Source: an uncultured virus (IMG/VR IMGVR_UViG_3300021255_000099) (taxonomy: Duplodnaviria; Heunggongvirae; Uroviricota; Caudoviricetes; Schitoviridae). From it: a stretch of 20,000 bases of DNA. The translations under genes were made by a program, and so were the position numbers. Shown one piece after another: positions 540 through 20,000 of the stretch. The notes below the pieces were generated by a model. It ran no database searches. It was not told where the DNA came from and saw only the letters and a program-made list of their open reading frames with translations. Each line of letters opens with the position of its first letter. Positions within the stretch are counted from its first letter, which is position 1. The stretch is taken from the IMG/VR virus record IMGVR_UViG_3300021255_000099, one strand, 5' to 3'.

Positions 540-544
540 GTAAA

Positions 545-2163: not shown

Positions 2164-2170
2164 AAGTATC

Positions 2171-2320: not shown

Positions 2321-2323
2321 GAT

Positions 2324-2357: not shown

Positions 2358-2376
2358 ATCTATAATGGAGAAAGTC

Positions 2377-2505: not shown

Positions 2506-2512
2506 TCTTTAA

Positions 2513-2596: not shown

Positions 2597-2602
2597 ATAC
2601 CT

Positions 2603-3652: not shown

Positions 3653-3654
3653 AA

Positions 3655-3882: not shown

Positions 3883-3904
3883 AGGATGGAACTGGTGATG
3901 AATA

Positions 3905-4087
3905 ATGGAACCGATAACAACTAATCTCGCAGTATTTGCAGATAATGCTCGTCTTTTGCTTACCATTATTGCAACAAGTGCTGGCTGTGTATTGCTTATA
4001 GCACTTACAGTATTTGGTATAGCACTTATGCTGGCTCTTGTATGCGGGATTCTTTCCGATTTAGACCGGGACTGGGAAAAGAAATGA
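3905..4087 (+). CDS. Small membrane protein
   Basis: 60 aa with a ~35-residue hydrophobic stretch; ATGA overlap with the next gene. Confidence 0.6.
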   Translation: MEPITTNLAVFADNARLLLTIIATSAGCVLLIALTVFGIALMLALVCGILSDLDRDWEKK

Positions 4088-4494
4088 AACCTGAAACTGT
4101 ATTGGAGATCAAAAACCTGATTAAAGATCTAGTCGATGTATCGCAAAAGTCATATGACCTGTATGGATGTAAGGATTTGTCTGCCAACGAGAAAAGACAA
4201 TTTGAGTACTTATCAGACAGGCTTTTTAAAGAATGGAAAAAGATTTATGACAAGTATGAGACAGAAATAATTAAATCTGTCCAGACTTATGCTGATGCCC
4301 CAGATACAACTTTAGGTACTCGTGATCGAGAACGAGCATGGATTGCCAGAGATATCTATTTTTCCAATAAGCGTAGTAAACCCAAAAAGATCATTTCGGA
4401 AGAACACAATCCTCAAATAGAGCTTCCATTGTGGGATCCAAGCAAAGATGTAGACAGGGATGGGATTATTAATCCCAAATACAAAATCACATGA
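4084..4494 (+). CDS. Hypothetical protein
   Basis: Likely start ATG 4084 (MKPETVLE...), translationally coupled to the upstream stop. Confidence 0.65.
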   Translation: MKPETVLEIKNLIKDLVDVSQKSYDLYGCKDLSANEKRQFEYLSDRLFKEWKKIYDKYETEIIKSVQTYADAPDTTLGTRDRERAWIARDIYFSNKRSKPKKIISEEHNPQIELPLWDPSKDVDRDGIINPKYKIT

Positions 4495-4518
4495 TTAAGT
4501 TTCATTAAGGAGATAGAA

Positions 4519-4866
4519 ATGAAGTACAGGATCAAGAATGAAAGAGAACGAAGATTATTAAATGACGCTCTTGGGATCACAGAACTAGAAGCAACAAATC
4601 CTAAAGATACTTTGTTAACTATTCGAGTATCTTTTGCAGGAAATGACTGGCTTAGTTTTTTTAATACCGAACCAGTAAAAGAATTAGCAGACGGATGGCA
4701 TCCTTATCCAGAAACAAAACCTGAGAAAAAAGGAAAGTATTTGATCGCTATTGATAATTCTAATTTACATCTTGTTGATGTCCTTGATTTCGTGGGTGAG
4801 TCATTTGTCGCTTGGAATTCCAGCATTATTGCTTGGAAAGAATTGCCAAAGATTTGGAAAGAATGA
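4519..4866 (+). CDS. Phage protein with C-terminal DUF551-like domain
   Basis: TAAGGAG RBS; GWHPYPETKPEKKGKYLI ... IIAWKELP pattern. Confidence 0.65.
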   Translation: MKYRIKNERERRLLNDALGITELEATNPKDTLLTIRVSFAGNDWLSFFNTEPVKELADGWHPYPETKPEKKGKYLIAIDNSNLHLVDVLDFVGESFVAWNSSIIAWKELPKIWKE

Positions 4867-5078
4867 TTGATAAAACTCTTCTTGAACAGAGCAGGTATGC
4901 TCTTGAATCCTTGGATCAAACAATCAAACAAGTGAATGCAATCCCTGCCAAAGGAAGTCCTTGGGAAATATTGTCCTGGGTATACTTTCAACTGAAAGAC
5001 ACCCGGGATAAGTTTGAAGATCATTTAGAGGACTGGGAACAAGAATATAAGGAACAAACTGATGCAAGACAACGTTAA
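4863..5078 (+). CDS. Hypothetical protein
   Basis: Likely start ATG 4863 (ATGA overlap; MIDKTLL...). Confidence 0.55.
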   Translation: MIDKTLLEQSRYALESLDQTIKQVNAIPAKGSPWEILSWVYFQLKDTRDKFEDHLEDWEQEYKEQTDARQR

Positions 5079-5439
5079 TCATCCTCAGCATTACACCCAG
5101 GCTTCTGTGTATGTTGAACCAATCAACATTTGCAGGATGCTTGGATTCAATTTCGGAAACATGTTCAAGTATGTTGCCAGAGCACCATTCAAAGGACATG
5201 AGAAAGAAGACCTTGAGAAAGCCATGTGGTATTACCAGGATGCAAAGAAAGCTTCTTCACACCTTGCAAAGCATAATCCAAGAGCTTGGGGAGCTATTTG
5301 CGTATATTCCTGCAATTCCAAGAATGACCTTCTCAAGGATGCTGTGAAACCCTCGAATTCAATCGGTGAGTTCTTTGTTTACCTGGCTCACATGATTGAA
5401 CTCAGGATCATTCATCTGGAAGAAAATGCTTCTGCTTAA
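5062..5439 (+). CDS. DUF3310 (SaV-like) family phage protein
   Basis: DNVNHPQHYT...GFNFGNMFKYVARAPFKG..EDLEKAMWY signature; AAGGA RBS. Confidence 0.85.
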   Translation: MQDNVNHPQHYTQASVYVEPINICRMLGFNFGNMFKYVARAPFKGHEKEDLEKAMWYYQDAKKASSHLAKHNPRAWGAICVYSCNSKNDLLKDAVKPSNSIGEFFVYLAHMIELRIIHLEENASA

Positions 5440-5617
5440 AAAGCTTTATGCCCTTGTGGAATTGGCTGTTCTTTTAATTGTTCTGGGAGTAATGACTGCT
5501 CTCCTGAAAATTAAACTGACTTTCCATTGTTCCACTTTTGAAAGTGCATTGTTTTTGATTGCTGTGCTATTATGTGCAGGTTACGGTATTTACAAAACCA
5601 TATTGGTTTTAATTTAA
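5426..5617 (+). CDS. Small two-TM membrane protein (possible holin-like)
   Basis: Two hydrophobic helices separated by KIKLTFHCSTFES; probable start ATG 5426. Confidence 0.5.
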   Translation: MLLLKKLYALVELAVLLIVLGVMTALLKIKLTFHCSTFESALFLIAVLLCAGYGIYKTILVLI

Positions 5618-5626
5618 AGGAATAAG

Positions 5627-6124
5627 ATGGCAATCCCACTTCATCGTTACTTTGCTAAGGTCAAGGATTACAAAGACCAGGATTTCAAGCTTCCTGAACG
5701 TGCTACCCAGTTCTCCGCAGGATATGACTTCTTCGCTCCCGAGGATGTGATTATCCCTTCTTTCTGGAAAGGACTTCTGGGGAAAATCTTTTTCGGAAAG
5801 CCCATTTATCCCACTACGGTTCATTCCCATGTCAAAGCCAAGATGCGTCCTAACGAAGTTCTGGAAATCTTCAACCGGTCTTCTAATCCGAGGAAGCTTG
5901 GTCTTGTTCTGGCAAACGGTGTGGGTGTGGTTGATTCTGACTATTTCGGCAATCCTTCTAACGATGGTGATATTGGCTTTCCCTTTTATAACTTTATGCC
6001 TTGGGATGTCACCATTCGAAAGGATCAAAAGCTGGGTCAGGGAGTGTTCCACTCCTACTTGCGAGTAGACACTGACCGGGTCAAGACTAAGAGGACTGGC
6101 GGCTTTGGATCTACGGGCGCTTAG
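5627..6124 (+). CDS. dut: Trimeric dUTPase
   Basis: Motif I SAGYDF, motif II RSS, motif III GVVDSDYFG, motif IV QGVF and motif V RTGGFGSTG; AAGGA RBS. Confidence 0.95.
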   Translation: MAIPLHRYFAKVKDYKDQDFKLPERATQFSAGYDFFAPEDVIIPSFWKGLLGKIFFGKPIYPTTVHSHVKAKMRPNEVLEIFNRSSNPRKLGLVLANGVGVVDSDYFGNPSNDGDIGFPFYNFMPWDVTIRKDQKLGQGVFHSYLRVDTDRVKTKRTGGFGSTGA

Positions 6125-6554
6125 TATTTACGGAACTCTTGTAATGGTTGGATGCATTCTTGGCTACGGAGTGACATCCTCCCATTACAAGTCCAAGCTC
6201 CTGGCTTTAGACAGCCAGTACAAGGAAGCTGTCATCGAAGCAAGGAGCCAGGAAGAGAAATGGAGAAAGCTGTCCGATGAACAGGAAGCTGAATACAGGA
6301 AAAAGCTTGATTCTATTGTCAGGAATAATGACAAGCTTGTTAAGCAGCTGCGCAAACAACTCGCAGCAATCTCTTCCTCTGGAATGCCCAAGAATGCAAG
6401 AACCTCCTCCATCCCTGATGATTCCTCCGGAAGAACCAAAGTGGCAAACGAGGTTGGAGACCTTGCTGAATTCTCTTCTCAGTGCGCTAAAAGAGCAGAC
6501 GAACTCATCCTCCAAGTAGACGGTCTCCAGAAGTTCATCAAATCAGTGCGTTGA
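6105..6554 (+). CDS. i-spanin (Rz-like)
   Basis: N-terminal TM helix (ALSIYGTLVMVGCILGYGV), long coiled coil, and C-terminal helix ..RADELILQVDGLQKFIK typical of Rz. It contains an embedded lipoprotein gene. Confidence 0.85.
   Translation: MDLRALSIYGTLVMVGCILGYGVTSSHYKSKLLALDSQYKEAVIEARSQEEKWRKLSDEQEAEYRKKLDSIVRNNDKLVKQLRKQLAAISSSGMPKNARTSSIPDDSSGRTKVANEVGDLAEFSSQCAKRADELILQVDGLQKFIKSVR
6277..6519 (+). CDS. o-spanin (Rz1-like lipoprotein), fully embedded in +1 frame
   Basis: Signal peptide II with lipobox LSS-C25 and Pro-rich mature region CPRMQEPPPSLMIPPEEP. GGAG upstream; lambda-like embedded architecture. Confidence 0.85.
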   Translation: MNRKLNTGKSLILLSGIMTSLLSSCANNSQQSLPLECPRMQEPPPSLMIPPEEPKWQTRLETLLNSLLSALKEQTNSSSK

Positions 6555-6560
6555 TTTATT

Positions 6561-6616
6561 TCCCTTGGATCAATCGGTGAGATCTGTGCGCAGATCGGAA
6601 CGAAAGATCCAAGGGA
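6561..6616. other. Long interrupted hairpin in intergenic region
   Basis: TCCCTTGGATC (6561-6571)/GATCCAAGGGA (6606-6616), TCG/CGA, and an inner GATCTG-TGCG-CAGATC. Confidence 0.7.
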
Positions 6617-6637
6617 TTACTTTATTTGGAGATAGAG

Positions 6638-6910
6638 ATGATTGCAGAAGATTATGAAAAACTCTTTGATGTTATGAAGTTATTTGGGCTGGCAGACAAA
6701 GATACTAAAAACAGAATGCTTTGTGATCTTCGAGAGCTTTATTATTGCATTCTGGGTTTTCATGATTGCTTAGAAATTGCTTTGCAGGAAGTCAAAGGTT
6801 TGAACGAAGAGGCAATTAAGGAATTGATGCAGAAAAGCAAAGAACTGAGAAATAGAATCTATCCCATATATTCTGCTTTGAAACAGCTTCAACCTGAGGA
6901 ATCCAGATAA
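6638..6910 (+). CDS. Hypothetical helical protein
   Basis: GGAG RBS before ATG 6638; its stop overlaps the next ATG (TAATG). Confidence 0.65.
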   Translation: MIAEDYEKLFDVMKLFGLADKDTKNRMLCDLRELYYCILGFHDCLEIALQEVKGLNEEAIKELMQKSKELRNRIYPIYSALKQLQPEESR

Positions 6911-7131
6911 TGAACTTTGGGAAGATCAGGGATACTCTCCAGCTTCTAGGTATGTATGAGGATATGGAAGAGTTTGGATCCAAGGTGGAATTCTCTATTT
7001 CTCTTCTGGCTACAGCCTTGGATCATCTGGATGAACCAGAGATCATAAAGACAAGCCTTACCTATGCTATCAGGGAATTGACTGAGATAGAAGCTGAATT
7101 GAACAAGTACAACGGAATCAAACAGGACTGA
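6910..7131 (+). CDS. Hypothetical protein
   Basis: 73 aa, GAGG RBS, coupled to the upstream gene; last + strand gene before the convergence point. Confidence 0.65.
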   Translation: MNFGKIRDTLQLLGMYEDMEEFGSKVEFSISLLATALDHLDEPEIIKTSLTYAIRELTEIEAELNKYNGIKQD

Positions 7132-7158
7132 AATTATTAATAACTTATGATAAATATT

Positions 7159-7196
7159 AATAAAATCCCCCAGCAGGCTGCAACCTAGCTGGGGGA
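7159..7196 (-). terminator. Rho-independent terminator at the convergence point (mainly - strand, possibly bidirectional)
   Basis: TCCCCCAGC (7166-7174)/GCTGGGGGA (7188-7196) with inner AGG/CCT; followed on the - strand by TTTTATT. Confidence 0.8.
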
Positions 7197-7248
7197 ATTC
7201 ACTTGAAGGCTAAATCAAATCAACGAGAACATTATAGCCTAATTGCTC

Positions 7249-7605
7249 TTAATTAATCAAGATCCAATCATTGGCAAACATATCCTCACCGCACACATTG
7301 TAGGGATACTTGGTTTCTTCTCCCTTGTCAATGTCGTACCAATAAGGCATAGTCCTTCCAATCGAGTCTTCCTTTGCACAGACTCCCATCAGGGAACCTT
7401 CACAAATCCATTTCTGCCTGGAAACACAGACAATGTGCTGTTCTGCATTTTCACTGCTCGTGTAAACGCTCCAGACCGAAGAGAAGGATCCATCCACTTC
7501 AGTCTCTTTCTTTTCGTCCTTAGACTCTTCATTGTCTTCCTCAGCAGCTTCTTTAAGCATCTGGATCATTGCACTCAGGAACTCATCAAATTCATCTTTC
7601 TTCAT
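7249..7605 (-). CDS. DUF2829 / Tad2-like protein with acidic N-terminal extension
   Basis: AAGGA RBS. SF...V-S-R-Q-K-W..G, MPY, and C-terminal PY.V..EDMFANDWILI match the DUF2829 pattern (F..A...V.R.GW...PY...W.PS..D.LA.DW). Confidence 0.6.
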   Translation of the reverse strand: MKKDEFDEFLSAMIQMLKEAAEEDNEESKDEKKETEVDGSFSSVWSVYTSSENAEQHIVCVSRQKWICEGSLMGVCAKEDSIGRTMPYWYDIDKGEETKYPYNVCGEDMFANDWILIN

Positions 7606-7643
7606 TGGTTCAATCCTTTTGATTAAAGGTATTTAATTATAGA

Positions 7644-10600
7644 TTAAATCAGGCAACCAAGCAGTACTGCAAGAGGATGCATTGCAATGCCCCTGAAGAT
7701 CATACCCAGACCAATTGAATACCCAATGTCTCCTGTGAGTGTCTTGGTGATCCAGTTGTCAGTTAATAAAGAACCAGTTCCCAAAGTTTCTGCTGCTGCT
7801 GCACCAAATACAGTTCTCGCAGGATTCATCATCATGGAAAGAATCGTAGCGGGAATAATCCTGTATTTGTACATCATGAACCAGAGGATTCCCATGCGGT
7901 TAAGGTATTCACGCCCAGGAGTAGTGAACTGATCATAGTCAACGAACAGAGTGGAAACAATGGCATTTGCCTGGTGAGGTTCCATCCGGACATTCCGGTA
8001 CTTGGAATATTCGGTCAGGTACTTGTAGCCAATGCCTTTGCAGAGCCAGTCGGTGTAGTTGACTGCTTTGGTCAAAAGCTGGAAGATTTCAGAATTCTTG
8101 GTCATCAAAGCATTGGCTCCAAGAGTCTTCAATCCTTTGGGCATCTTGTCCACCACAGTTTCAAGCATGTCGCCAATTGTTTGTTTGCCGATTTCCAGCT
8201 CTTCAAAGACTCTACCTTGGGACGAAATGGTGGAATACTCACCTCCCTGAATCAAGGGATACAGGCTGAGGTTCTTCATCCTGGTTTCGTTCATGGCAAT
8301 TTTCTTCTCGTACTGGTCTTTGAGAGCCGCATTCTCAGCCTTGGTAGCCCTGTACTTCAACTCTTGGTTCTGGTGATACAGACGGTTGTACAACTCAGTT
8401 TCTGCATAGCATTCCTTCATGAGACGGATGATCTCACGGAAAGGAATATTCAGCGAATACCTGAGGATAATGAGGTTACTGACTGCATTCAAAGCAGGAA
8501 CCTTCAGGGACCGGATGATTATCGTGTCCCGAGCGTACGAGGTTAATCCGCCAAGAGCAGCTTCGGCATTCAAAACCTTGTGCCGTGCTTTCTTGCCAAG
8601 AACCAGATCCAGAATGCCCGCAAGGGCCAGTTCACATCCGGATGGCAACAGGAATTTTTCATCGTAAATATCCACAAGGGACTTGCGTTCATAACCAAGA
8701 ACTGTATAAACAAGATCCTTTCTGATGTAGAAATGATCTCCAAAGTATTTCTTGGCTTCTTCTTTGACCCGGATATCGATCTTTTCCCATGCCTGCCTGA
8801 TCACAGGATCTGCGGAATGAGCGACGTCAATGAATTCATTCTTCTTTTCAGAAGAAGAAGCTTGGTCGAAATCATCCCAGCAATCTTTGATGACTTCGAT
8901 ATTGTTGTCAATAGCAAACTGTTCACGTTCCTGCCTGGATCTGTACTGAGCAATGCCTGTGAAAATATCCCTGTTCTCATCCAGGTATTTGCGATCTTCC
9001 TGGGGAACAGACCGTTCATATCCAATGACAGAACCATCGAGGTCATACATGGGAATAACAAACTGTTCCTTGTTATTCTTGTTGGATCCCCTCTTCGTAT
9101 ATAACCGATCCAAAGTATTTACTGCAGAGATATGCGTGCCTCTGGCTTCACCACGACTTCGGTTATTGATCTGGAATCCAAAGGCAGTGCTGTTGATGTT
9201 CTGGAACAGCCCTTCAAGGAATTCTCTCGGATGAGGAACCTTGGTCCACATTCTGACCATTGGTTCGGAATTATCAAGGGAATCCGCCTGATATGCACCA
9301 ATCAGGACAAAGCCCTCACTTTCATACCTTTCCTGCTGACGGGCAGGAACAATGATGTACTGTCCCGAAGGAATGGATCCACGAGGTCTCCATCCCTTGA
9401 AAGCTTTGATTGAGTGCCTCTCTTCCACACGCTTGGTTTCGATGTCCTTGATATCGTACAGCTGATCGAAGAGAGTGTTCATACCTTTTGTTTCATTAAG
9501 GTAGAACTGTTTCGCTTGTTCTTTCTCTGCCGGAGTGAGCAAATCAATGGCGTACATCGTGGCAAGACGATCAATACTGTGAACCACAGTGCTGTGCTGA
9601 GGATCATATTCCCGCTCCCCGAAAGAACGGGAAATAGCAGTTGCATTGGTCAGGAGATTCCAAGAGATCTTGCCAAGCATCAGATATTCAGCCAATTCCT
9701 TGGCTTTCTTCTGATAATGCTTTGCCTGGTCATCTCCGACCATATCAACCAAATGCTTTTCTTCCTTGCTGATTGCCTGGCTCAGTTTGTTGGCATCAGT
9801 AAAGACCTGCCGAGCTTCATCACGACCCAAGGTAGTGATATCCGTAGCTCCGAGAATCCTGTCGAGGAAAGTTCTTTCTGCACGAGAGAGCTTCCTGGAG
9901 AATTCATTCAGAAGCCTTGCTGGCAAATCCTCAAGAAGTTCTTTGCGGTTCTTGTCTTGGAAACCATTGATACTCTTTAACCTTTCATGGAACTTTTGCA
10001 GAGTAGGAACACGTCCATAAACATCAGACAGCCAACCAACAACATTGACATCCTTGACAACTTTGTTGGTCCAATGCCTGAAGGATTCCATTACTGTAGT
10101 GTAAACATTAAGAGCATCTTCCCTGAGTTCTTTGGAACCTTCCCGAATTAATTCCGCAGCTTTATGATTGCCTCGGGCTTCCAGGAATTTGATGGTGCCA
10201 ACCCTGAAAGCTCCGTTCACCCAATCAAAGATCATGCTGTCAATTTTTTCAGCAAGATCTTCAGGAGGATTGTTGATTAATTCCTGCTGCTGTTTCGTGG
10301 CAGAATCCAGTTTGCCCAAGATAGACTGGTTTTTGATGTTCTGGTTCAGAAGCCTGTCTAACAAGCTGTTTTCAGTTTTTTCAATAAGCCTCCTGAGAGA
10401 ATATGCAGGAGCCTTGGATTCAGTTTTGTTCTTGGGTTGCCTTAAATTACTCAAGCTTTCCTTGATGTCGGGATCTGCAAGCATCAGAGCCAACAGGAGA
10501 GCAGGTCTTGCAAAGTCTTTCCTGAGAAGAGGAATATCCTTTTTAACGCTATTTTCGTACCGAGCATCCTTGCCTGTGACCAGGTTGTACAGAGTCAAAG

Positions 10601-13600
10601 CCTGTTCCTGTTCTTCAGGCGTAGCAGCATTCTTGTCTTCCAAGAACACTTCATAAGAAGGAATCTGTTCAACAATATCAGCATAGAAATTGGCAAGATC
10701 CCTTCTGTCCGAAGGATTCAAAATATCCTCGAACATCAGTGCTTTGGTAGCAAGAGCAATGTCTCTTGCCTGGTCAGGCATAAAGCAAGGCCTCAGCAAA
10801 CCTTCGAGATTATTGACGAATTGCTCGTGTTGTTTAATAACCTTGCTGATTACTTTATTTGTTTTATCTAAGTAATCCCCTCGGGGGAGTTTGTGCGGAT
10901 AAGATGCTCTGGCAAGAGCTGTGTACAAAGATATTCCGCCTCTGCCGTCTGCAACGGACATTTCAGCCATGCCGACTTTCGCAAACCTTTGTGTGGGTTC
11001 AGCGGAAGAAGTATCCGTAGTTCTGGCATTATTTTCCACTGCACGAAGAATTGCCATTGTGGCTGTGCTGAACATCGAGAAGAAATCATTGAAGATTTCT
11101 GCGTCGTTCTCCATGCTGGTTTTCGGCGGTTTCGTCGGATCCCTATACAACCAAGCATCAAAGTATTTGGCAAGAGGCTTTCTGGTTATCTTGAAAGCAC
11201 TCTTAATAACTTTGCCCACAGAACTCAGCAGATTCCTGAAGACACTGCGAAGATTCTGGACTTCCTCTTCAGAAGCATTCAAATGAATGTGCTGGCTCAG
11301 ATAATTGAATGCATCCTTGTTGGTAAGGACATAAGCAATGGTTTCATCCACAGCCAGAGCCAGGCGTTCAACACTGCCCGGATCCTCAGGATCCACAGCA
11401 ATCGTACCAAGATTGATGTCTTCCCAGTATTCTTTGATAATCTGGAGAACACGGGGAAGATCAACACTGTCAACAGAGACTCCGGACACTGGAGCCAGGA
11501 AAGTATCCTGCATCAGCTTGACCAGGGACATCACTGCCTTGTAGCCTTCAGGATCTCCCTGGGGACCCTTGGCAATAATCTGCTTGATTCCAAGGGTCAA
11601 GGCGGCATGAGTGAATTCATGAGCCAGGAAGTCCTGGTTTGCTGCTGCAGACAAAGCCTGGAAAGGATCTTTGATGGATTTGTCCTGGTTCAGGATATAG
11701 ATGGTTGCACCATCACTTGTAACATCAATGACCGAGAACTCAGTGTTCTGTGCTGCTTGTGCCCGCAGATGTTCAGGCAATCTGGAAATGTCATTGACAA
11801 TGACCAGATCCAAGTTCTTGGGAAGAAGCCTTAAAACAATGCTAGCAATCGCATCAAACAACCTGCGTTGCAGAGTGCGCTTGTTTCCATACCTGTCTGC
11901 AATCCGCTTGAAGACATCCCGAGCGACATCATACACAGCTTTGGGATTGGAAGCATCCTGCCGTTTGGTAAGCACCCAGTTCTGGGCTTCAGCTTTCCGA
12001 GCTTCCTGTTCAGCCTTGGAAGCTTCCTTTCGGGCTGCTTTGGCAAGTTCACGTTCCTGCTTGCGCTGCTCATATTCTGCCTGTTGAGCAGCTTTGTCTG
12101 CTTCACGCAAGCTTTCTTCGGAAGGAGCATTTTCCTTGAGTTCCTGAGAACTAGTTTCTCCCAGAATGGCTTGAATATTGTCAACGATAGCTTTGCGGTT
12201 GTCATACGCATCATCAATGGGAGTATCACTGTACCTGAGATCCCGCTGGCAAATTCGCATTTGCTCATCAGACAACATCTTGGTCTTGCTTTGGATTCTT
12301 TCTTGGATCAGATGCTCAATAATCGGCTTGTCTATTGCATACGCAGGATCATCCTTCATTGCCTTGAGCCGAGCCATGGCAATGGTATTCTTGTATGCAG
12401 CATTAAGATCCGTTAAATCCCTGAATTGGTTGTCTGTATTAAGACTGTCTAAAACAGCTTTGGCTTCTTCAACAGAAACAGGATTTCCGTACACAAAAGC
12501 GCAATTGCTGATGCCAGAGTAATGGTTCATTGAACCAGGCAAGCACTTTTGGGCGTAATTATTGACCAGTTCATTAAACCAGCAAGACCTGTAATAAGCG
12601 AAGATTCCCTTGAGATCTGCCCTGAGTTCGGAATCAACACTGTTCCTGGTTCCCTTGAAATTCGAATTCTTGTTGAAAATATCGAAATTCATGGTGGAAT
12701 TGACTTCTGTCATTCCAACCAGTCTCTTGATGATTCCGTCGATACCGCCGTATTCACCTAAACCAAGAGCTTTCTTCAGGTCAAGGTAATCATCGGTAAT
12801 ATCTTCGCCATCAAAGGTCTTGCCATTTTTCAACTGGATTAGGCAATCAATGATCGCATCCTCAGTAGAAGCGTCTTCTTTGGCATAACCATAGTGTTTT
12901 AATTGTTTTGCAAGAAAACCTAAGTTCTTGAGGATGCTGTCCATGCGCCTTTGGGTCTGAGCATAGTAATCAGCGACATTCATTAAGTATCCAAGAACCC
13001 TTGCGTATTCAGGCTTAATGGAAATGCCATCGAACATCTGGTTAATGTCCAGATTGATCCCAAGCATATTGCAAATGCGATTCAGCTTGAGAACCATTGC
13101 TGCATCACCAGTGCCTTGCACAGCAAGAGCACCACCAGAAATTCTGGTGTCACCTGCAAAGACATTTGAACGGTAAACCGAATAATCCTGCCGATCTTTG
13201 TCAGCATCCTCGACAATAGGCTTGTCGCTCATCCGGTACTGGTTCTTGGATGCAACAACCTTGACCCCATCGCTGAAAGTCAGCTGTGCCATGAAATTGT
13301 TTACCCGCTGGTGGGAATCTTCTTTTTCAAAAGCAGTGGAGTCTTTGTATCCTTTGTTCCTAACGTATTCGGTAGCTTCAACCCCTCGTTGGATGCAGGT
13401 AAAGATGCTCATTACCTGCATAGGAATGGTCATGGCTCTCATGCTCTGGTCGCCAATGGCTTCATGCACAGCACTCTGTGCAGCCTGACCAAAATGCTTT
13501 GCAAGCGCACGGGCAAGAACTTCTTTGCCCTTGGCAGTGATCCTAAAGTTCTGGATCAGATCGTAATCCCGCTTGAGCCTGCCTTCTGAATCATATTCAT

Positions 13601-16600
13601 TACGACTTTCAATGTAAGCCATCCGCTTCTTCTTGTCATATTGAATATTTTCAGTTCTTAATTCTTCTTGGGTCAGAATATTTACAGGAAGTCCTTCGAT
13701 ATATTCCCCAAGCTCTTTTTCAGTAATGGGGAGCCAGCTGCCTTTACGAGGATCATAGGCAACAGAGAACAACTGAAGAAGTGCTTTCCTTAAGTCTGTA
13801 TAGTTAAGACCCTCGATATTAAACTCTGCATGTTCATTGGATGCAGGAGTATTCTGAAGCTCGCGTTCCTTGGCATCCAGCATACGAACCAAGGTGTCTG
13901 CAACTTTGTAGTTGTTTTCTACGTCAACCTGAGCTAAATGGGCTTCATCAAGTTTGCGAATTCCAATAGCCCGAGCCAGATCAAACAACCGGTATCCGTC
14001 TAGCTGAAGGTTGGTAACATACCTGGCAATTTCCAAAGTATCGTACATTCGGGTGAAACCAAAAGACCTGTCATCCGTACCACGCCTGGTCTTGGACCTG
14101 TTCTTGATCAGAGGAGCATCAAAGCCTTTGATGTTATGCCCGATAACAGGAGCATTTCCGACATAAGCATAAAAATCTTCAATGGCTTTTTGTTCATCTA
14201 CCAGCTTGCCTGCTGCTTCCTGAGACTCATAGTACTTGATCATCGGATTGACTTTGCCGTCAATCGTCTTGGGAAGCTCAGAAGAACCCTTGTCTAATTT
14301 GATAGTAACACTGAAAGGTTGTCCAACAGGTTTGCCTCTGAGATACTTTTGGGCATGGATTTGTGCCAATTTAACAGTCATGGGATCCACAGGTTTTCCT
14401 TCTTCACCTGTGGTTTCAGTGTCGAAAACAACAACTTCCTCTTCCCGCATGTCTTTAAGGAAAGACTTGTACACTTCAGGAAGAGTGCCTGTTGCATCGT
14501 ACATCTTGCCCAGAGCAGTAGTAATAGCCTGCTGGAGCTTTTCCTCCATTGCAGTGATGACCTGCAAGGTGGAACCATGTGCTCTCGAACCATAGTTGAT
14601 AATGGTAACCAGAGCTTTGGTCAGCGAGGTGCTGAAGTGGAAGTTGGGAGACCCAGTACGTAAGAAATCCTGGATCACCTTCGGAATATCATTCGGGTTA
14701 CCGCTGTTCGGAATGATCCAAGTATCCGAACCAGCCTTGTTCTGATACCCACGAATATGTCCCATGATCGTAAGCAGACCTTCCATTGAAGAGAGAACTC
14801 TTGTGTAGTTGGTCTGGGAAGAACGATTGCCTTCTTTTTTGGCAGTCTCGTTGTCTGCTTTGAGATGAGTGAAGAATTCACGGAGCTTATCAACCACACC
14901 TTTTTCTGCAACCTGTTTGTGGCTGTCTTGGTTTCCATGCCCATAAATGGAGTCTGTGCCGCCGTCTTTGACAGAGGTTAGGTTTGCCTGGGTAGTAGTT
15001 CTGGTTCCTTCATAGTAACCAGTCTTGGCTTGCATGTACCCTTGAGCCAGGGTATAAGCGCCAATCAGTAATCCCCAGCCTTTGTTTGCATGAGCAGGAC
15101 CGTCGTTGTTGCCGTCGATTTCAAGAGACAGGTTGGAATCAAACTTACGAAGCTGCTGGTCTTTGAAAATTTCAGGATAGTTTGCATCCTGGATGCTGAC
15201 ATACCTGACTACTTCCAGAAGAGCATTCTGCTGCTGGTCACCCAGCATTTCATAATCAAACCCAGGAATCTTCTTTTCTTTATCCCCATACTGCAATTCA
15301 TGGAGAAAATCTTTGTATGCCTGGGTTTCTTCAGCAGTTAAAGTGAATGCTTCTCCGGAAATATCTTCGACACCTGCTAGCTTGAGAAGATTTTTATCTT
15401 CGGAAGCCATGAATGCTTTGCGGAAAACACTCTTTAAAACAGGATCACTATTAATTTTTTCGTGTACCCTGGCAATGAAGTTTTCAACATTCTTTCTATA
15501 TGTGGAAATATCTTTTTTGCCAGTGGATTCACCAAGGTTGCTTGCAAGAGCAATGAACCAGTCTGTGTAAGCCTGGGAATTCTTGTCTGTCAAATCCACA
15601 GGGCCAAGCTTCTCATGGATAAAGGCACGAAGAGGTTTGTTGCTCTGCGGATTCACAGAACCAACCAAACCAATACGACTGTTCTTCCAGACAGTAGCCT
15701 TGAAGTACAACTCAATGTCATCAATGTTCATTCCTTTGGGAAGTTCCAGGAACACAGATGCCATATAGTTGAAAGCAAGCCAACGGGACAATAACTGTCC
15801 TTCCTTGGACTTGAAATCTTCCTGGTTCGAGAATGCACGATCTCCTGCGATAGGCAGAGGTTTCTGGACTGCGAAGGATCCCCTGAGTCCACCAAGAGCC
15901 AGTTGCAAACCAAGGTAAGCTTTATTGACTTTCTTGGCTCTGGTTTCTTCTGCCCGCACAGCCAGCTTCTGTTCTTCAGTGGCTGCAACAGGAGTATGTG
16001 CAATATTGATATGCTCCCGTGCCTTGGGAGCTTCATTAATATAGATTTCCCTGTTCTGCATGGAGCAGCAAAGATGCTTCAGCACAAATTTGTCCTGCTT
16101 GAAGATTCCTTTGAGATCATCCCGGACAGTGACAATAGGCAATTCATGCGTGCTGATTTCAGAATCATCAACAGTTCTTGCATCTACCTTGGCAGTTTCA
16201 CGGCTGATAAATCCAGCGTCTTCAACAATGTTCGCCATGAAATTAGCCATTTCAGCGATCAAGGTTTCCTGCTCCATGGCAGACCGATCATTGGAATTTT
16301 CGATATTTTCTGTAATACCGAAAAATTCTTTGGTCATGTTGACCAATGCTGCCATAGCCAGAGGAGCAACTTCTCCTCCCAGATATACAGTGTCTGAATC
16401 ATTTTCCAAGAGAAGCCCCAAGTGAGCCAATTCTTCAGCAGTAGCTTCAGAAGTGCCAGCAGTCATGGATGCAATCCACTGCACCATGATGATCTGCATG
16501 ATTTCCTTGGTTTTTTGATCCAGTTTGCCGTTCTTGATCAACTTGGGGAACTGAGCATACTTAACCCCATTGGCAAGCCTCTGCACCATGGCTTGCTCAA

Positions 16601-19600
16601 GACCCTGGAACAATCTCCCTTTTGGATCCAAGGCAGTAAGCACCTGGACAATCAAAGGATCATGCGCATCAGGCAAATGATCTTCGCCCTTGGAACGAAG
16701 TTCGTCTTCCTTGAGCCAACGGATTCCAGAAAGATCTGCTTTTTTGAGCAGTTTGGACTTAAGTCCTCGGGTAGCGGTTGAATCTGCTCCTCCCAAGAGT
16801 TTATCCAGAAGCTTGAGAGAAGTCAGATGCTGAACCAAATAACCTACAGGATTTGCTGTTCCACTACCCCAAAGATAGAACATCCTTTTCACAGGAACAA
16901 ATAACCGAGAGAAAATACTCGGAAGGTTTTCTGCGAATTTAACTTCTGTTTGTTCCTTGGGCGAAGCTTTCGGGAAATAATATTCCCCTGTTTCAGTGTC
17001 AATTTCCATCTTGACAATGAAATGCTTTTTACCGGCTTCTTCAGCAACTTGCTGCCGTTCTTCAAGAGAACCAGCGGAACAGAAACGTTCTGCAAGTTGC
17101 TTGCCTTCTTCCATATCAGCTTCAGATACCTGTGCTTCAGAAGGTTCGGGAGCTTTTACAGAAATCTCAGGATGGGACATCTTGCCTTCAATATAAGCAG
17201 TGATATCTTCAGCTTTCCAAGTGCATTTGTCCTGTTCCGAAAGATCTTTGTTAACTGTCTGGATAACAGATAACACCTGGCTCAGAGTCAGTTCCACACC
17301 GGAACTTCTGATCTGATCCAGCCTGGATTTGACCAAAGAATCTCCCTTTGTCCGAATAGAAGATTCGGTTTGAGCAGAAGGTTTCGTCGTTTCATCAGAA
17401 ATAGCTCCCTGTGCTAAAGGATCAAAATCTTCAGGCACAGGAGGAAGTTTTACTTCTAAATTGGAGTTCTTGGCAGGTGCACCCGATTTATTTTCTGATG
17501 CAGAAGAATAAGAAAGAAAAGAACTACCATCAATTTGTTTTACAGGGCTTGTCGTAAATACAATGTATTCATACGGATATCCCACTTCAAGGATTAATTG
17601 GAGTGCTTTCGGGAAATCTGTGGCATTCTCGCAATAAACTTCTAAGATGCTTCCCGCAGGTACTTCTAATCTTCGGGTATTGCTTTCTTTGTTTTTTTCA
17701 AGCTTAATAGAATTAAGTGCATCATTTACAATATTGTTTGGAACATCTTTTTCAGTGAAAATTTCAGTAAATTTTCCAGAAACGTTTGTAAATGAACGGG
17801 TTATACCAGCAAGCTTTCCTAAGGCTTTTATTAAGTTTTTTAAATTTTCAAGCGTAGGACTAAAAAAAGCATCTCGAGCAGCAATGTATCCGCCCTGATA
17901 TCCACCAGGGCGATTTACTTGTCTTTCAGTTGCAGGAGAGACAAGCGAAATTACAGAATTTTGAGTACCTTTTGTAGTATCTCGTTGGAAAATAAGCACA
18001 GGAGAATTCTTAGAAAGACTGGGAAGTTTTCCTGCGATTTCTTGTGGAACATCCGCATCAATGACATCAGGAGCATCTGGATTATTAGATGTTCTACGTC
18101 TTCCTTGCGGAGTACCAAAAATTCCAAGAGTAACTCTAGATTTTGCGGTTATTTGTTCTGGGGTCCCTTTATTATGAGAAGGCTGGGACTCAATCTTAGG
18201 AGAAGACTGTTGTTCAGTTTTTTCTGGTTCAGCTGCTTTAGTTTCTTGGGTAGTTTCCGTAGAAGAATTCTGATGTACAACTACTGTTGCAACTTGAACC
18301 ATCTTCCCATATTTATTAATCTGCGGGGCATCAATGGTATCAATAATTCGTGATCCAGGAGGTAAACTATCGTCTTCTACACCTCGCGCAATTATCTTCA
18401 TACCCTCAATATATTTTGCTCCCGGAGTTATAGGGAGTTCATACCCGAAGGCTTCAAGATGTCTAGTCAGTTCACGATCAAGATCTTCTAAAAGTTTTAC
18501 TGTTGCAGGACTTTCCGCATCATTTCGCTTCGAATGCTTAATGCGATATATATGTGTTCTGATATCACCTATAAGTTTTGCAATATTTTTAATATCTTCT
18601 TTTTCATAATCAGGATTCTTTGCATCTAATTTTTTAGAAGCAATCTTCTGATTTAATTCATTATTAAGATCAAGATATCTCTTAAATAATGCACGAGTGC
18701 GCGGATGCTTAGGTTGGTTTCCATTAGTGTTATTCAAAGTATTTTCTACTTGAACACGCCGTCTTCCACGCATGGTTTTGTCAGCATAAGCTAAATTTGC
18801 TTTGATTCTTTCTTTTACAAAATTCCTGCGTTCACTGGCAGATAAAGCATTTGGTGCTCTACTATCTGACGGGGAATCACCAAAAGTTTCGATCCAATCC
18901 AGACCACTATTAGCTAAGTCTAATAAATCTTCATCTGAAAGATCATCGTCATTAATAAGAAAACCTTCTGGATTGAATCGATGGGGATTCTTTTTCTTAT
19001 AATTTCTTACATCAAACGGAGTTCTTGGCTGTTGCTGGGGAACAGGCTGAGAAGGCTGAGTCTGTTGCTGTTGAGGCTGAGGCTGAACAGGAGTAGGAGT
19101 AGGTGCAGGAGCAGGTTGCTCAGTTAACACAGTTGGATCCACTGTTGCAGTGGTAGTTTCCTGAGCTGCTTTTTCCTGTTCTTTCTGAAGCTCTGCCTGT
19201 CTGGCTTGCTGTGCTGCCAGCAGACGTTGTGCCTGTAAGCTCGCAGCAAACTGCTTGTAACGAGCATCCTTGAATTTGTCCGGAGTAACAAGGTTCAAGA
19301 CTTCATCCTTGAATCCTGAATAATCTTGGGACAATCCATAATACAAAGCAATAGCAGATAAATCGTCCGGGGTAAGTTTCTTTGCTCCCTTCTCTCGAAT
19401 TGCTCGCTTTGCTGTTGACTGCGCAGAACGTTTTAAAGTTTCAAAAGCTTTCTTAAGATTTTCTTCATGCTGGTTCAGAAGAGCATTAAGTTGCTTTTGC
19501 TGTTCCGGATTATTGGTGATATTTGCAAGATTCTGCTTAAGAGTCGTTATCCGATCATAAGCCGAGTCCACTTGTTCCGCGACATCCGGAGCAGAGTTGA

Positions 19601-20000
19601 TGTCAAATTTATGCAAGCCAAAATTAGACCTTGCAATGGAATAAGCGCTAATAGCATCATTGATTGCAGCATGTACTGTAGAAATATTCTTATCTAATTT
19701 GTCTGCTAAATTAGAATCTGTTTTCCGAACTTCTTCAGTATTCTTATTCCAAGTATCAGTAAATACCTGGAGATCTTCTGCAAATTTTGCAGTTTCTTTC
19801 TTGGTTTTGCGCTTGATGGCTGCATCGTATGCAGATCCAGGAGCATCTCCTAAAAGCTGTGCAGATGCAATAGCTGTACGCGGAGCAACAATACCCAAGC
19901 CACCAATAGCGCCTTCAGCAATAGACTGTCCGACACCTTCCATAACATCCTGTGTGCGATCCAGATATTTCTGGGTGGCCAGATTCTGCCTGTACTGTCC
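7644..20000 (-). CDS. Virion-encapsidated RNA polymerase (N4 gp50-like), 5' end beyond window
   Basis: The frame stays open for 19 more codons past the ATG at 19943 to the window end (at least 4118 aa). T/DxxGR-equivalent KNSRIG..NPQSNK at ~15640-15690. Motif A LEIDGNNDG (D at 15114-15116); motif B TSLTKALVTIINYGS (14586-14630); GTGD and motif C QMFDG (D at 13029-13031). HEFTH metallopeptidase motif at 11607-11621. Orientation opposite the SSB cluster, as in N4. Confidence 0.95.
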   Translation of the reverse strand, partial: GQYRQNLATQKYLDRTQDVMEGVGQSIAEGAIGGLGIVAPRTAIASAQLLGDAPGSAYDAAIKRKTKKETAKFAEDLQVFTDTWNKNTEEVRKTDSNLADKLDKNISTVHAAINDAISAYSIARSNFGLHKFDINSAPDVAEQVDSAYDRITTLKQNLANITNNPEQQKQLNALLNQHEENLKKAFETLKRSAQSTAKRAIREKGAKKLTPDDLSAIALYYGLSQDYSGFKDEVLNLVTPDKFKDARYKQFAASLQAQRLLAAQQARQAELQKEQEKAAQETTTATVDPTVLTEQPAPAPTPTPVQPQPQQQQTQPSQPVPQQQPRTPFDVRNYKKKNPHRFNPEGFLINDDDLSDEDLLDLANSGLDWIETFGDSPSDSRAPNALSASERRNFVKERIKANLAYADKTMRGRRRVQVENTLNNTNGNQPKHPRTRALFKRYLDLNNELNQKIASKKLDAKNPDYEKEDIKNIAKLIGDIRTHIYRIKHSKRNDAESPATVKLLEDLDRELTRHLEAFGYELPITPGAKYIEGMKIIARGVEDDSLPPGSRIIDTIDAPQINKYGKMVQVATVVVHQNSSTETTQETKAAEPEKTEQQSSPKIESQPSHNKGTPEQITAKSRVTLGIFGTPQGRRRTSNNPDAPDVIDADVPQEIAGKLPSLSKNSPVLIFQRDTTKGTQNSVISLVSPATERQVNRPGGYQGGYIAARDAFFSPTLENLKNLIKALGKLAGITRSFTNVSGKFTEIFTEKDVPNNIVNDALNSIKLEKNKESNTRRLEVPAGSILEVYCENATDFPKALQLILEVGYPYEYIVFTTSPVKQIDGSSFLSYSSASENKSGAPAKNSNLEVKLPPVPEDFDPLAQGAISDETTKPSAQTESSIRTKGDSLVKSRLDQIRSSGVELTLSQVLSVIQTVNKDLSEQDKCTWKAEDITAYIEGKMSHPEISVKAPEPSEAQVSEADMEEGKQLAERFCSAGSLEERQQVAEEAGKKHFIVKMEIDTETGEYYFPKASPKEQTEVKFAENLPSIFSRLFVPVKRMFYLWGSGTANPVGYLVQHLTSLKLLDKLLGGADSTATRGLKSKLLKKADLSGIRWLKEDELRSKGEDHLPDAHDPLIVQVLTALDPKGRLFQGLEQAMVQRLANGVKYAQFPKLIKNGKLDQKTKEIMQIIMVQWIASMTAGTSEATAEELAHLGLLLENDSDTVYLGGEVAPLAMAALVNMTKEFFGITENIENSNDRSAMEQETLIAEMANFMANIVEDAGFISRETAKVDARTVDDSEISTHELPIVTVRDDLKGIFKQDKFVLKHLCCSMQNREIYINEAPKAREHINIAHTPVAATEEQKLAVRAEETRAKKVNKAYLGLQLALGGLRGSFAVQKPLPIAGDRAFSNQEDFKSKEGQLLSRWLAFNYMASVFLELPKGMNIDDIELYFKATVWKNSRIGLVGSVNPQSNKPLRAFIHEKLGPVDLTDKNSQAYTDWFIALASNLGESTGKKDISTYRKNVENFIARVHEKINSDPVLKSVFRKAFMASEDKNLLKLAGVEDISGEAFTLTAEETQAYKDFLHELQYGDKEKKIPGFDYEMLGDQQQNALLEVVRYVSIQDANYPEIFKDQQLRKFDSNLSLEIDGNNDGPAHANKGWGLLIGAYTLAQGYMQAKTGYYEGTRTTTQANLTSVKDGGTDSIYGHGNQDSHKQVAEKGVVDKLREFFTHLKADNETAKKEGNRSSQTNYTRVLSSMEGLLTIMGHIRGYQNKAGSDTWIIPNSGNPNDIPKVIQDFLRTGSPNFHFSTSLTKALVTIINYGSRAHGSTLQVITAMEEKLQQAITTALGKMYDATGTLPEVYKSFLKDMREEEVVVFDTETTGEEGKPVDPMTVKLAQIHAQKYLRGKPVGQPFSVTIKLDKGSSELPKTIDGKVNPMIKYYESQEAAGKLVDEQKAIEDFYAYVGNAPVIGHNIKGFDAPLIKNRSKTRRGTDDRSFGFTRMYDTLEIARYVTNLQLDGYRLFDLARAIGIRKLDEAHLAQVDVENNYKVADTLVRMLDAKERELQNTPASNEHAEFNIEGLNYTDLRKALLQLFSVAYDPRKGSWLPITEKELGEYIEGLPVNILTQEELRTENIQYDKKKRMAYIESRNEYDSEGRLKRDYDLIQNFRITAKGKEVLARALAKHFGQAAQSAVHEAIGDQSMRAMTIPMQVMSIFTCIQRGVEATEYVRNKGYKDSTAFEKEDSHQRVNNFMAQLTFSDGVKVVASKNQYRMSDKPIVEDADKDRQDYSVYRSNVFAGDTRISGGALAVQGTGDAAMVLKLNRICNMLGINLDINQMFDGISIKPEYARVLGYLMNVADYYAQTQRRMDSILKNLGFLAKQLKHYGYAKEDASTEDAIIDCLIQLKNGKTFDGEDITDDYLDLKKALGLGEYGGIDGIIKRLVGMTEVNSTMNFDIFNKNSNFKGTRNSVDSELRADLKGIFAYYRSCWFNELVNNYAQKCLPGSMNHYSGISNCAFVYGNPVSVEEAKAVLDSLNTDNQFRDLTDLNAAYKNTIAMARLKAMKDDPAYAIDKPIIEHLIQERIQSKTKMLSDEQMRICQRDLRYSDTPIDDAYDNRKAIVDNIQAILGETSSQELKENAPSEESLREADKAAQQAEYEQRKQERELAKAARKEASKAEQEARKAEAQNWVLTKRQDASNPKAVYDVARDVFKRIADRYGNKRTLQRRLFDAIASIVLRLLPKNLDLVIVNDISRLPEHLRAQAAQNTEFSVIDVTSDGATIYILNQDKSIKDPFQALSAAANQDFLAHEFTHAALTLGIKQIIAKGPQGDPEGYKAVMSLVKLMQDTFLAPVSGVSVDSVDLPRVLQIIKEYWEDINLGTIAVDPEDPGSVERLALAVDETIAYVLTNKDAFNYLSQHIHLNASEEEVQNLRSVFRNLLSSVGKVIKSAFKITRKPLAKYFDAWLYRDPTKPPKTSMENDAEIFNDFFSMFSTATMAILRAVENNARTTDTSSAEPTQRFAKVGMAEMSVADGRGGISLYTALARASYPHKLPRGDYLDKTNKVISKVIKQHEQFVNNLEGLLRPCFMPDQARDIALATKALMFEDILNPSDRRDLANFYADIVEQIPSYEVFLEDKNAATPEEQEQALTLYNLVTGKDARYENSVKKDIPLLRKDFARPALLLALMLADPDIKESLSNLRQPKNKTESKAPAYSLRRLIEKTENSLLDRLLNQNIKNQSILGKLDSATKQQQELINNPPEDLAEKIDSMIFDWVNGAFRVGTIKFLEARGNHKAAELIREGSKELREDALNVYTTVMESFRHWTNKVVKDVNVVGWLSDVYGRVPTLQKFHERLKSINGFQDKNRKELLEDLPARLLNEFSRKLSRAERTFLDRILGATDITTLGRDEARQVFTDANKLSQAISKEEKHLVDMVGDDQAKHYQKKAKELAEYLMLGKISWNLLTNATAISRSFGEREYDPQHSTVVHSIDRLATMYAIDLLTPAEKEQAKQFYLNETKGMNTLFDQLYDIKDIETKRVEERHSIKAFKGWRPRGSIPSGQYIIVPARQQERYESEGFVLIGAYQADSLDNSEPMVRMWTKVPHPREFLEGLFQNINSTAFGFQINNRSRGEARGTHISAVNTLDRLYTKRGSNKNNKEQFVIPMYDLDGSVIGYERSVPQEDRKYLDENRDIFTGIAQYRSRQEREQFAIDNNIEVIKDCWDDFDQASSSEKKNEFIDVAHSADPVIRQAWEKIDIRVKEEAKKYFGDHFYIRKDLVYTVLGYERKSLVDIYDEKFLLPSGCELALAGILDLVLGKKARHKVLNAEAALGGLTSYARDTIIIRSLKVPALNAVSNLIILRYSLNIPFREIIRLMKECYAETELYNRLYHQNQELKYRATKAENAALKDQYEKKIAMNETRMKNLSLYPLIQGGEYSTISSQGRVFEELEIGKQTIGDMLETVVDKMPKGLKTLGANALMTKNSEIFQLLTKAVNYTDWLCKGIGYKYLTEYSKYRNVRMEPHQANAIVSTLFVDYDQFTTPGREYLNRMGILWFMMYKYRIIPATILSMMMNPARTVFGAAAAETLGTGSLLTDNWITKTLTGDIGYSIGLGMIFRGIAMHPLAVLLGCLI
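13870..14450 (-). other. DEDDh (DnaQ/PolC/RNase T-like) 3'-5' exonuclease domain within vRNAP
   Basis: ExoI VVFDTETTG (14406-14432), ExoII GHNIKGFD (14118-14141), DTLEIAR, and ExoIII HLAQVD (13923-13940). Confidence 0.9.
19020..19105 (-). repeat. Pro/Gln-rich low-complexity linker in vRNAP
   Basis: Encodes QPAPAPTPTPVQPQPQQQQTQPSQPVPQQQPRT, with short imperfect repeats (aggagt, aggctg). Confidence 0.7.

Follow-up and report, generated by a model that had tools for sequence, protein, structure and literature searches.

Can a single-subunit RNA polymerase house a nuclease inside its own catalytic core? To our knowledge the single-subunit RNA polymerases (T7, N4, mitochondrial) are textbook polymerases without a nuclease, and the question is raised by a 20,000-nucleotide stretch of DNA (the window) from an uncultured virus placed in the Schitoviridae (IMG/VR record IMGVR_UViG_3300021255_000099). 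An earlier note, made from the window's letters alone, had read its minus-strand virion RNA polymerase (vRNAP) gene as carrying a DEDDh exonuclease inside the catalytic core at 13870-14450. That reading held: the interval corresponds to amino acids (aa) 1832-2025 of an uninterrupted open reading frame (ORF), and we consider it close to certain that this frame specifies a vRNAP with a complete DnaQ/epsilon-PolC-type DEDDh exonuclease in the fingers between motifs B and C. The placement in the fingers rests on a profile alignment to the mini-vRNAP of phage N4, on a structural model, and on the way in which the insert splits the Pfam family N4_RNAP_helical. The motifs that the note had quoted (VVFDTETTG, GHNIKGFD, HLAQVD, K..YGS, GTGD, and FDG) all lie where it had put them.

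An N4-type virion RNA polymerase with an intact active site

The window ORF encodes an N4-type vRNAP whose active-site residues are intact. An exhaustive HMMER search with aa 1301-2500 returned 138 proteins at E <= 1e-3, the top 25 of which were giants of 3088-4179 aa with 25-31% identity to the window core (98% for one of them, P0003), and these 25 relatives together with the window segment made up a 26-row alignment (A1). Compared by hhalign with N4 mini-vRNAP, the profile from this alignment matched N4 residues 304-1093 with Prob 100 and E 2.4e-50, a result repeated in an independent run, and it set K1776 and Y1784 on N4 K670 and Y678 and D2305 on N4 D951. The features of the polymerase are listed here, with invariance counted over the 26 rows.

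12444..16043 (-): modelled polymerase core, aa 1301-2500, corresponding to N4 mini-vRNAP residues ~304-1093
15660..15686 (-): T/DxxGR-type motif region KNSRIGLVG, aa 1420-1428, aligned to N4 RVGRMQMLG; R and G invariant (26/26)
15096..15125 (-): motif A, LEIDGNNDGP, with catalytic D1610, aligned to N4 VEADGVTNGP; D invariant (26/26)
14586..14618 (-): motif B / O-helix, K1776...Y1784-G-S, aligned to N4 K670/Y678; K1776, Y1784, and G1785 invariant (26/26)
13554..13829 (-): variable sub-region after the exonuclease, aa 2039-2130, partly common to exonuclease-less relatives; lower model confidence, mean pairwise identity 22%
13017..13115 (-): GTGD (aa 2277-2280) and motif C, QMFDGISI (FDG at aa 2304-2306, ~13030; catalytic D2305), aligned to N4 GTGD and D951; both aspartates (D2280, D2305) invariant (26/26)
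11607..11621 (-): HEFTH (HExxH), aa 2775-2779; H, E, and H nearly invariant in the 26 aligned giants

An AlphaFold2 model of aa 1301-2500, built from the 26-row alignment, had a mean predicted local distance difference test score (pLDDT) of 80.9 and a predicted TM score of 0.76. It superposed on the N4 mini-vRNAP promoter complex 3c46_A with a VIA Z of 32.8 and a root-mean-square deviation (rmsd) of 3.8 A over 736 aligned residues, and on T7 RNA polymerase (RNAP) elongation complexes with a VIA Z of 19.3. The fit was better to promoter-bound N4 mini-vRNAP (Z 32.0-32.8) than to apo or full-length forms (Z 22.9-25.8), and because the superposition is best on the promoter-bound enzyme, the core as modelled adopts the 'unlocked' conformation, with the O-helix formed. 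Homology to N4 suggests in addition that the window vRNAP would transcribe from hairpin promoters. Single-sequence phmmer searches against the PDB gave weak matches (N4 at E 0.012, DnaQ at E 0.014) that are superseded by the profile and fold comparisons. In BFVD, 14 vRNAP segments of known or metagenomic phages matched nothing beyond the core, at TMq values like those of N4 (0.26-0.52), which is compatible with their being insert-less and is no test of it.

The closest characterized system is N4 gp50 (mini-vRNAP structures 2PO4, 3C2P, and 3C46; full-length structures 9PNQ and 9PNT), which the window protein resembles in belonging to the class of giant injected single-subunit RNAPs, in its motifs and fold, and also in its downstream HExxH, its conserved C-terminal region, and its gene neighbourhood. 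The two proteins are only ~15-19% identical, however, and where N4 has ~35 residues (~711-745) the window protein has ~235, the DEDDh exonuclease included. The claim that N4 mini-vRNAP lacks an exonuclease at this site is thereby borne out.

A complete DEDDh exonuclease between motifs B and C

The insert had been estimated at ~190 aa; its existence stands, and its size needs a small correction, as measured against exonuclease-less relatives it comes to ~220 aa. Its components are as follows, with conservation counted over the 13 exonuclease-bearing vRNAPs (the window protein and the 12 relatives described below).

13830..14498 (-): insert, aa 1816-2038 (~220 aa), in which the DEDDh exonuclease is preceded by a linker helix and followed by a flexible exit linker; without counterpart in exonuclease-less relatives and N4
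13902..14432 (-): Pfam RNase_T (PF00929) match, aa 1838-2014, profile positions 1-163 of 164, E 1.9e-6, 29.0 bits against a cut-off of 24
14406-14432 (-): Exo I, VVFDTETTG, aa 1838-1846 (FDTETTG at 14406..14426), with D1841 and E1843; D and E in 13/13
14118..14141 (-): Exo II, GHNIKGFD, aa 1935-1942, with D1942; D in 13/13
13923..13940 (-): Exo III-epsilon, HLAQVD, aa 2002-2007, with H2002 and D2007; H-x4-D in 13/13

The DEDDh residues are thus complete and correctly spaced (D1841/E1843, D1942, H2002/D2007), as had been proposed, and the Pfam check that the note had called for was positive on both counts, with RNase_T at 29 bits against a cut-off of 24 and a DEDDh fold predicted at structural Z values of 16-18. 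RNase_T also scored above the Pfam cut-off in 9 of the 13 exonuclease-bearing vRNAPs versus none of the 12 exonuclease-less ones scanned. Among other profile collections, the insert matched PHROG 192 ('DNA polymerase exonuclease subunit') at E 3.2e-14, and its best NCBIfam model was the exonuclease segment of PolC-type DNA polymerase III (E 1.6e-11), followed by DnaQ/DinG-type DEDD exonucleases.

Fold comparisons pointed the same way. The exonuclease domain of the model, with pLDDT mostly 79-94 across it, had a Foldseek match at E 1.5e-6, and model residues 530-727 superposed on residues 420-595 of 9qrn_A with a VIA Z of 17.7 and an rmsd of 2.5 A over 171 aligned residues. This structure is titled only 'DNA polymerase', and we infer that it is of PolC type because its residue range fits the positions of the NCBIfam PolC profile. 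Further matches by VIA Z were the DnaQ domain of Streptococcus thermophilus 8h18 (17.1), Pol III epsilon 2gui (16.4), the Staphylococcus aureus DinG exonuclease 9ii8 (16.4), and ExoI (16.2). PolC carries its exonuclease as an internal insertion in the polymerase polypeptide, and the insert shares with PolC and epsilon both its place in the profile (NCBIfam NF001688, PolC positions 419-591) and the motifs DxETTG, HN..FD, and HxAxxD. Unlike PolC, the host of the domain here is an A-family-related RNA polymerase, the NCBIfam match reaches 42.6 bits against an equivalog cut-off of 873, and PHP and Pol III alpha domains are missing, so that on profile evidence the insert resembles the PolC exonuclease and the window protein itself is not a PolC.

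The path of the chain through the insert can be followed in the model, where the O-helix (ending at Y1784) leads into a 29-residue helix, then a short linker helix, and then the first exonuclease strand. The exonuclease begins ~30 residues past the motif-B tyrosine, where the long helix after the O-helix ends, and the insert splits Pfam PF21894 (N4_RNAP_helical) at about profile position 97 of 103. The exit linker is modelled with low confidence (pLDDT <50 at model residues 733-738), and the polymerase then resumes in frame, as had been claimed, with the equivalents of N4 K670/Y678 and D951 set on either side of the insert by the hhalign comparison.

Between Exo I and Exo II (~14200-14260), all 13 vRNAP exonucleases share a conserved, clade-specific N-P-x(3-5)-Y segment, KVNPMIKYY in the window protein, which we do not recognise from epsilon or RNase T.

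An insert of this kind in a metagenome assembly could be a mis-join, and the support for its junctions comes from assembled contigs, not from raw reads; an identical 74,241-base contig may moreover be the window's own source. One contig of 23,746 bases, assembled from another sample (X3), runs through 12900-15300 in a single piece and has 116 substitutions. A second, of 1,630 bases and from another study (X4), covers 13771-15300, including both junctions (13830 and 14498), with 108 substitutions; both are gap-free. GC content shows no break across the insert, and the same architecture recurs in 12 full-length clusters and two fragments. A chimeric assembly is effectively refuted by the gap-free contigs and the repeated architecture, and we regard its probability as negligible.

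Distribution and conservation of the insert

By local phmmer with the window's exonuclease and by the alignment, the same exonuclease occupies the same site in 12 of the 25 giant relatives (P0003-P0009, P0012, P0014, P0015, P0018, and P0026), and two truncated proteins with vRNAP flanks (P0029 and P0030) carry it as well, so that the insert is common to at least 14 other 50%-identity clusters (12 full-length proteins and two fragments). The remaining 13 of the top 25 are without it, and the closest exonuclease-less relatives, like N4, have 8-35 aa at the site. The difference is visible in the spacing from the motif-B tyrosine to the motif-C aspartate, which is 486-539 aa in all 13 exonuclease-bearing proteins versus 284-333 aa in 12 of the 13 exonuclease-less ones, and 273 aa in N4 (Y678 to D951, by published numbering). 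The thirteenth exonuclease-less protein (P0013) has a spacing of 406 aa and, at the exonuclease site, an unrelated 126-residue K/E-rich helical segment (aa ~1690-1815). Because an unrelated insert sits at the identical site, the loop that follows the post-O helix in the fingers seems to be a hot spot for insertions, as far as aligned sequences can tell.

A site that tolerates unrelated inserts might equally hold a dead domain, or a purely structural or regulatory one that modulates, for example, auto-inhibition by the C-terminal domain or access to the promoter; in the accessible text of the 2026 N4 gp50 structure paper (PMC13434306), the N4 C-terminal domain packs against the fingers and palm. 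The conservation of the insert speaks strongly against this. The pentad D1841, E1843, D1942, H2002, and D2007 is invariant in all 13 exonuclease-bearing vRNAPs, which are ~30% identical to one another, and the domain is conserved no less than the polymerase core: among the 12 diverged exonuclease-bearing lineages (without the near-twin P0003), mean pairwise identity was 33% for the exonuclease versus 29% and 26% for the polymerase segments before and after it. Nucleotide differences in the variant contigs fell at third codon positions in 36 of the 40 cases listed (there are 180 further differences), and between P0003 and the window protein 21 of the 1200 core residues are different, five of them in the insert. 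That the domain is dead or purely structural is accordingly very improbable in our view.

A hidden Markov model of the 13 exonuclease domains found no remnant in 20 exonuclease-less vRNAP-like giants (best E 0.045, at unrelated positions), and tblastn of the exonuclease segment against the 50,697 phage records of INPHARED gave no match at E <= 1e-3. N4 itself is likewise without the insert, which on these results, within the sensitivity of the INPHARED search, is not common in N4-like vRNAPs. Pattern scans based on the vRNAP alignment recovered only relatives of exonuclease-less length, at two loci in IMG/VR and two in JGI/ENA metagenomes, and a pattern scan of IMG/VR for the exonuclease yielded 15 weak loci; in the two of these that were inspected (L001 and L004) the match lay outside any giant ORF. 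PF00929 was not found in one relative's 41-kb record, a result of little weight given that the record is ~51% complete. The 10 exonuclease-bearing clusters that were looked up came from Logan/ENA metagenome assemblies only, without an NCBI or UniRef accession, and their longest contigs were mostly 74-76 kb.

Evolutionary history of the insert

To follow the insert along the history of its host polymerase, we used a quick IQ-TREE phylogeny of the polymerase (26 rows, 881 columns, insert columns removed), in which exonuclease-bearing and exonuclease-less proteins interleave. Parsimony counted six changes of state, at least three of them forced by well-supported branches; exonuclease-bearing P0015, for instance, is sister to exonuclease-less P0022 (Shimodaira-Hasegawa-like approximate likelihood ratio test (SH-aLRT) 99). 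In a tree of 115 exonuclease domains (15 from vRNAPs and 100 others, with two partial rows dropped), 13 vRNAP exonucleases formed one clade (SH-aLRT 96), with the window protein and P0003 on a long branch nearby. When all 15 vRNAP exonucleases were constrained to group together, the tree improved on the free quick search by 77.6 log-likelihood units (approximately unbiased test, p 0.956), so that the data do not reject a single origin. Read most simply, these trees reflect either one ancient insertion with several clean deletions after it or an exchange by recombination among vRNAP genes. Since sister lineages without the insert exist, sequence comparison also indicates that it is dispensable for the polymerase.

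Closely related DEDDh domains were seen in two other giants, P0046 (4160 aa, exonuclease at aa 2815-2956) and P0075 (3006 aa, exonuclease at aa ~2700-2900), the first of which adjoins the window's long branch in the exonuclease tree. No vRNAP signature was detected in either, and both were dropped as evidence on vRNAPs; they may be other injected or polyvalent proteins. The nearest non-vRNAP relatives (P0032, P0034, P0086, and many matches of ~830-940 aa) are DnaQ-type domains in the middle of UvrD/PcrA/Rep-like helicases, a large fusion family.

Relation to described polymerase fusions

Full-text searches of the openly accessible literature (subscription journals lie outside its scope) gave no description of this architecture, in line with the suggestion that it was undescribed. 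The nearest concept is that of polyvalent injected proteins, in which, as laid out in the main text of Iyer et al. 2017 (PMC5512222), N4-like RNAPs are found with a zincin-like metallopeptidase, lysozyme, ADP-ribosyltransferase, and PBECR1 RNase, the zincin-like HExxH metallopeptidase being nearly always fused to N4-like RNAPs. The window vRNAP would fit this theme with its RNAP, its DEDDh exonuclease, and a conserved HExxH motif (the Pfam scan reported no peptidase family). It differs in that the modules described in that text stand in series, whereas here the extra enzyme is nested in the fingers. The main text of the same paper, supplementary architectures aside, contains no DEDDh/DnaQ exonuclease with an RNAP module, and the word 'exonuclease' occurs in its reference list only; the accessible text of the 2026 structure paper has neither 'exonuclease' nor 'nuclease', and that of a 2015 review (PMC4496689) neither 'exonuclease' nor 'proofreading'. 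In the 2021 jumbo-phage survey, as far as its accessible text goes, 'vRNAP' denotes multisubunit enzymes.

Possible roles of the exonuclease

With its pentad invariant and its conservation on a par with the polymerase around it, the exonuclease domain is very probably catalytically active, and it would be a two-metal 3'-5' exonuclease. As part of the vRNAP polypeptide it would, by homology with N4, be carried in the virion and enter the cell along with the polymerase as infection begins. It would act while anchored in the fingers, on the face at which template and downstream DNA come in. The reading that we favour, to which we give about even odds, is that of an active, dispensable accessory exonuclease that removes nucleotides from free single-stranded 3' ends, of DNA more probably than of RNA. 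Candidate substrates would be the entering genome end, single-stranded DNA (ssDNA) of the template or displaced strand around the early transcription complex, which depends on hairpin promoters, and ssDNA derived from the host or its defences. Its role would then be that of a helpful but dispensable accessory, comparable to the extra enzymatic modules of injected polyvalent proteins.

Single-stranded DNA 3' ends are favoured because profile, fold, and sequence all put the domain nearest to DNA exonucleases attached to DNA polymerases or helicases, and on this basis we lean slightly towards DNA over RNA as the main substrate. The UvrD/PcrA-like helicase-exonuclease fusions, DinG, and 8H18 are similar in placing a DEDDh domain on a translocating DNA enzyme, and the non-vRNAP sequence relatives P0032, P0034, and P0086 are 32-37% identical to the domain. 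Unlike the vRNAPs, however, the partners in these systems are helicases or CRISPR-adaptation proteins, and the vRNAP exonucleases form their own group in the tree.

Some points weigh against the accessory DNA exonuclease. Structures of RNase T and oligoribonuclease (Orn) are also among the Foldseek matches (E 5e-5 to 3e-4), and DEDDh sequence and fold do not fix sugar specificity. The nesting in the catalytic fingers, where a separate bead in a 4502-aa protein might have been expected, argues for coupling to the polymerase reaction, and if the domain is coupled to the polymerase cycle then RNA proofreading would suit it at least as well as DNA processing. The geometry of N4 is a further difficulty, in that a 3'-5' exonuclease at the entering genome end attacks the early template strand, and simple resection is not obviously useful.

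The first of these points bears on the idea of a free-acting RNase, similar to RNase T or oligoribonuclease, that is injected and either trims or degrades host or defence RNAs or signalling oligonucleotides, or else matures the 3' ends of early transcripts. The Pfam family of the domain is RNase_T, which is consistent with such an activity, and predicted RNase domains (PBECR) have been proposed in phage polyvalent proteins, N4-like RNAP fusions included (main text of PMC5512222). PolC and epsilon nevertheless outrank RNase T in the profile and fold matches (the Foldseek matches to RNase T structures reach E 5e-5 at best and lie below those to DnaQ and PolC), no RNase T or Orn equivalog appears among the NCBIfam matches at E <= 0.001, and an effector acting in trans would rather be expected as a module of its own, outside the fingers. 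We therefore hold a free-acting RNase to be improbable, somewhat more so than the last of the alternatives.

This last alternative is RNA proofreading or rescue, in which the nested domain, carried on the mobile fingers, would excise misincorporated or backtracked nucleotides from the 3' end of the nascent RNA and so allow recovery from misincorporation or stalling during genome transcription and entry. The domain would make this the first T7/N4-type single-subunit RNAP with a built-in editing nuclease. Its position fits such a role well, right after the O-helix and the next helix and not at a terminus, with the site kept in all 13 proteins, and its closest relatives are polymerase proofreading exonucleases. 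A functional precedent exists in coronavirus nsp14 ExoN, a separate DEDDh protein that edits the product of the viral RNA-dependent RNA polymerase; it did not turn up among our sequence or fold matches, although no test was aimed at it. In A-family polymerases, on the other hand, the editing site lies opposite to the fingers, the nearest homologues of the domain act on DNA, and sister lineages as well as all characterized N4-like phages manage without an exonuclease. Proofreading could be useful because few vRNAP molecules per virion (about four copies in N4, according to the accessible text of PMC13434306) must transcribe the genome and perhaps help to pull it in. Weighing these points, we think RNA proofreading unlikely, though it is the most probable of the alternatives.

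Whichever substrate applies, a nuclease nested in the fingers of an N4-type vRNAP is, as far as our searches show, a new architecture, so far confined to a small clade of uncultivated animal-gut phages. This polymerase-exonuclease chimera occurs naturally, is conserved, and is evidently functional; it offers a test case for editing and 3'-end processing in single-subunit RNAPs, and it would deliver an accessory activity as soon as phage infection starts. Sister vRNAPs with the domain cleanly deleted can serve as natural matched controls, and the permissive insertion site in the fingers is possibly useful for engineered RNAP fusions. If the accessory DNA exonuclease is the correct reading and the substrate is ordinary ssDNA ends, a new domain architecture for the hallmark protein of the Schitoviridae still results; if RNA is edited, these would be the first single-subunit T7/N4-type DNA-dependent RNAPs with intrinsic exonucleolytic editing or arrest rescue.

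Gene, protein, and genome setting

The vRNAP gene fills most of the right-hand part of the window and faces a block of smaller genes, which were assigned by a PHROG scan.

3-539 (+): Sak4-like annealing protein
545-1255 (+): SSB
1252-1671 (+): RusA-like resolvase
5062-5439 (+): nucleotide kinase-like protein
5627-6124 (+): dUTPase
6105-6554 (+): Rz-like spanin, weak match
7644..19943 (-): vRNAP gene, 4099 codons from the first ATG in the window; frame open to base 20000

Nine of the 16 window ORFs scanned had no PHROG match. The replication and recombination genes at 3-7626 (+) are syntenic with N4 gp44-gp49, and the vRNAP gene lies on the opposite strand, as around N4 gp44-gp50. The vRNAP ORF is a single frame without stops that is unclosed at the window end; its full-length protein (P0002) has 4502 aa, 403 N-terminal residues of which fall beyond the window, and P0003 (4179 aa) is its sister at 96-98% identity, with contigs of ~73-74 kb for both. 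With 4502 aa on contigs of 74,241-74,266 bases, the protein belongs by size to the giant proteins (>3000 aa) of the N4-like phage class, podophages with genomes of ~70-75 kb, the gene order being drawn from the 20 kb of the window. It matched PHROG 2206 ('virion RNA polymerase') at E 3.6e-189, in a match that takes in the conserved C-terminal region, whereas Pfam vRNAP_dom_2 reached 22.9 bits, under its cut-off of 27.

At the DNA level, megablast of the window against the 50,697 deposited phage records gave no match, and tblastn of aa 1301-2500 against them found 50 vRNAP records over query residues 19-351 only (around T/DxxGR), at ~27-32% identity. Because a DNA-level match is absent and known vRNAPs are matched only around the T/DxxGR motif, sequence comparison places the window phage with the N4-like (Schitoviridae-like) phages, as a distant and uncultivated one. 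It occurs in sequencing runs of animal-gut metagenomes. One RNA-library run (X5) held a single 211-base contig at 14858-15068, which is not evidence of vRNAP transcription, and a search of the ESM Atlas gave no usable match.

A last observation concerns the stretch at ~17562-18794 (-), that is ORF aa ~384-794 or P0002 aa 787-1197, where Pfam reported no family. Its GC content is 0.38-0.40 versus 0.44-0.46 elsewhere, and in place of these ~411 residues P0003 has an unrelated segment of 82 residues.

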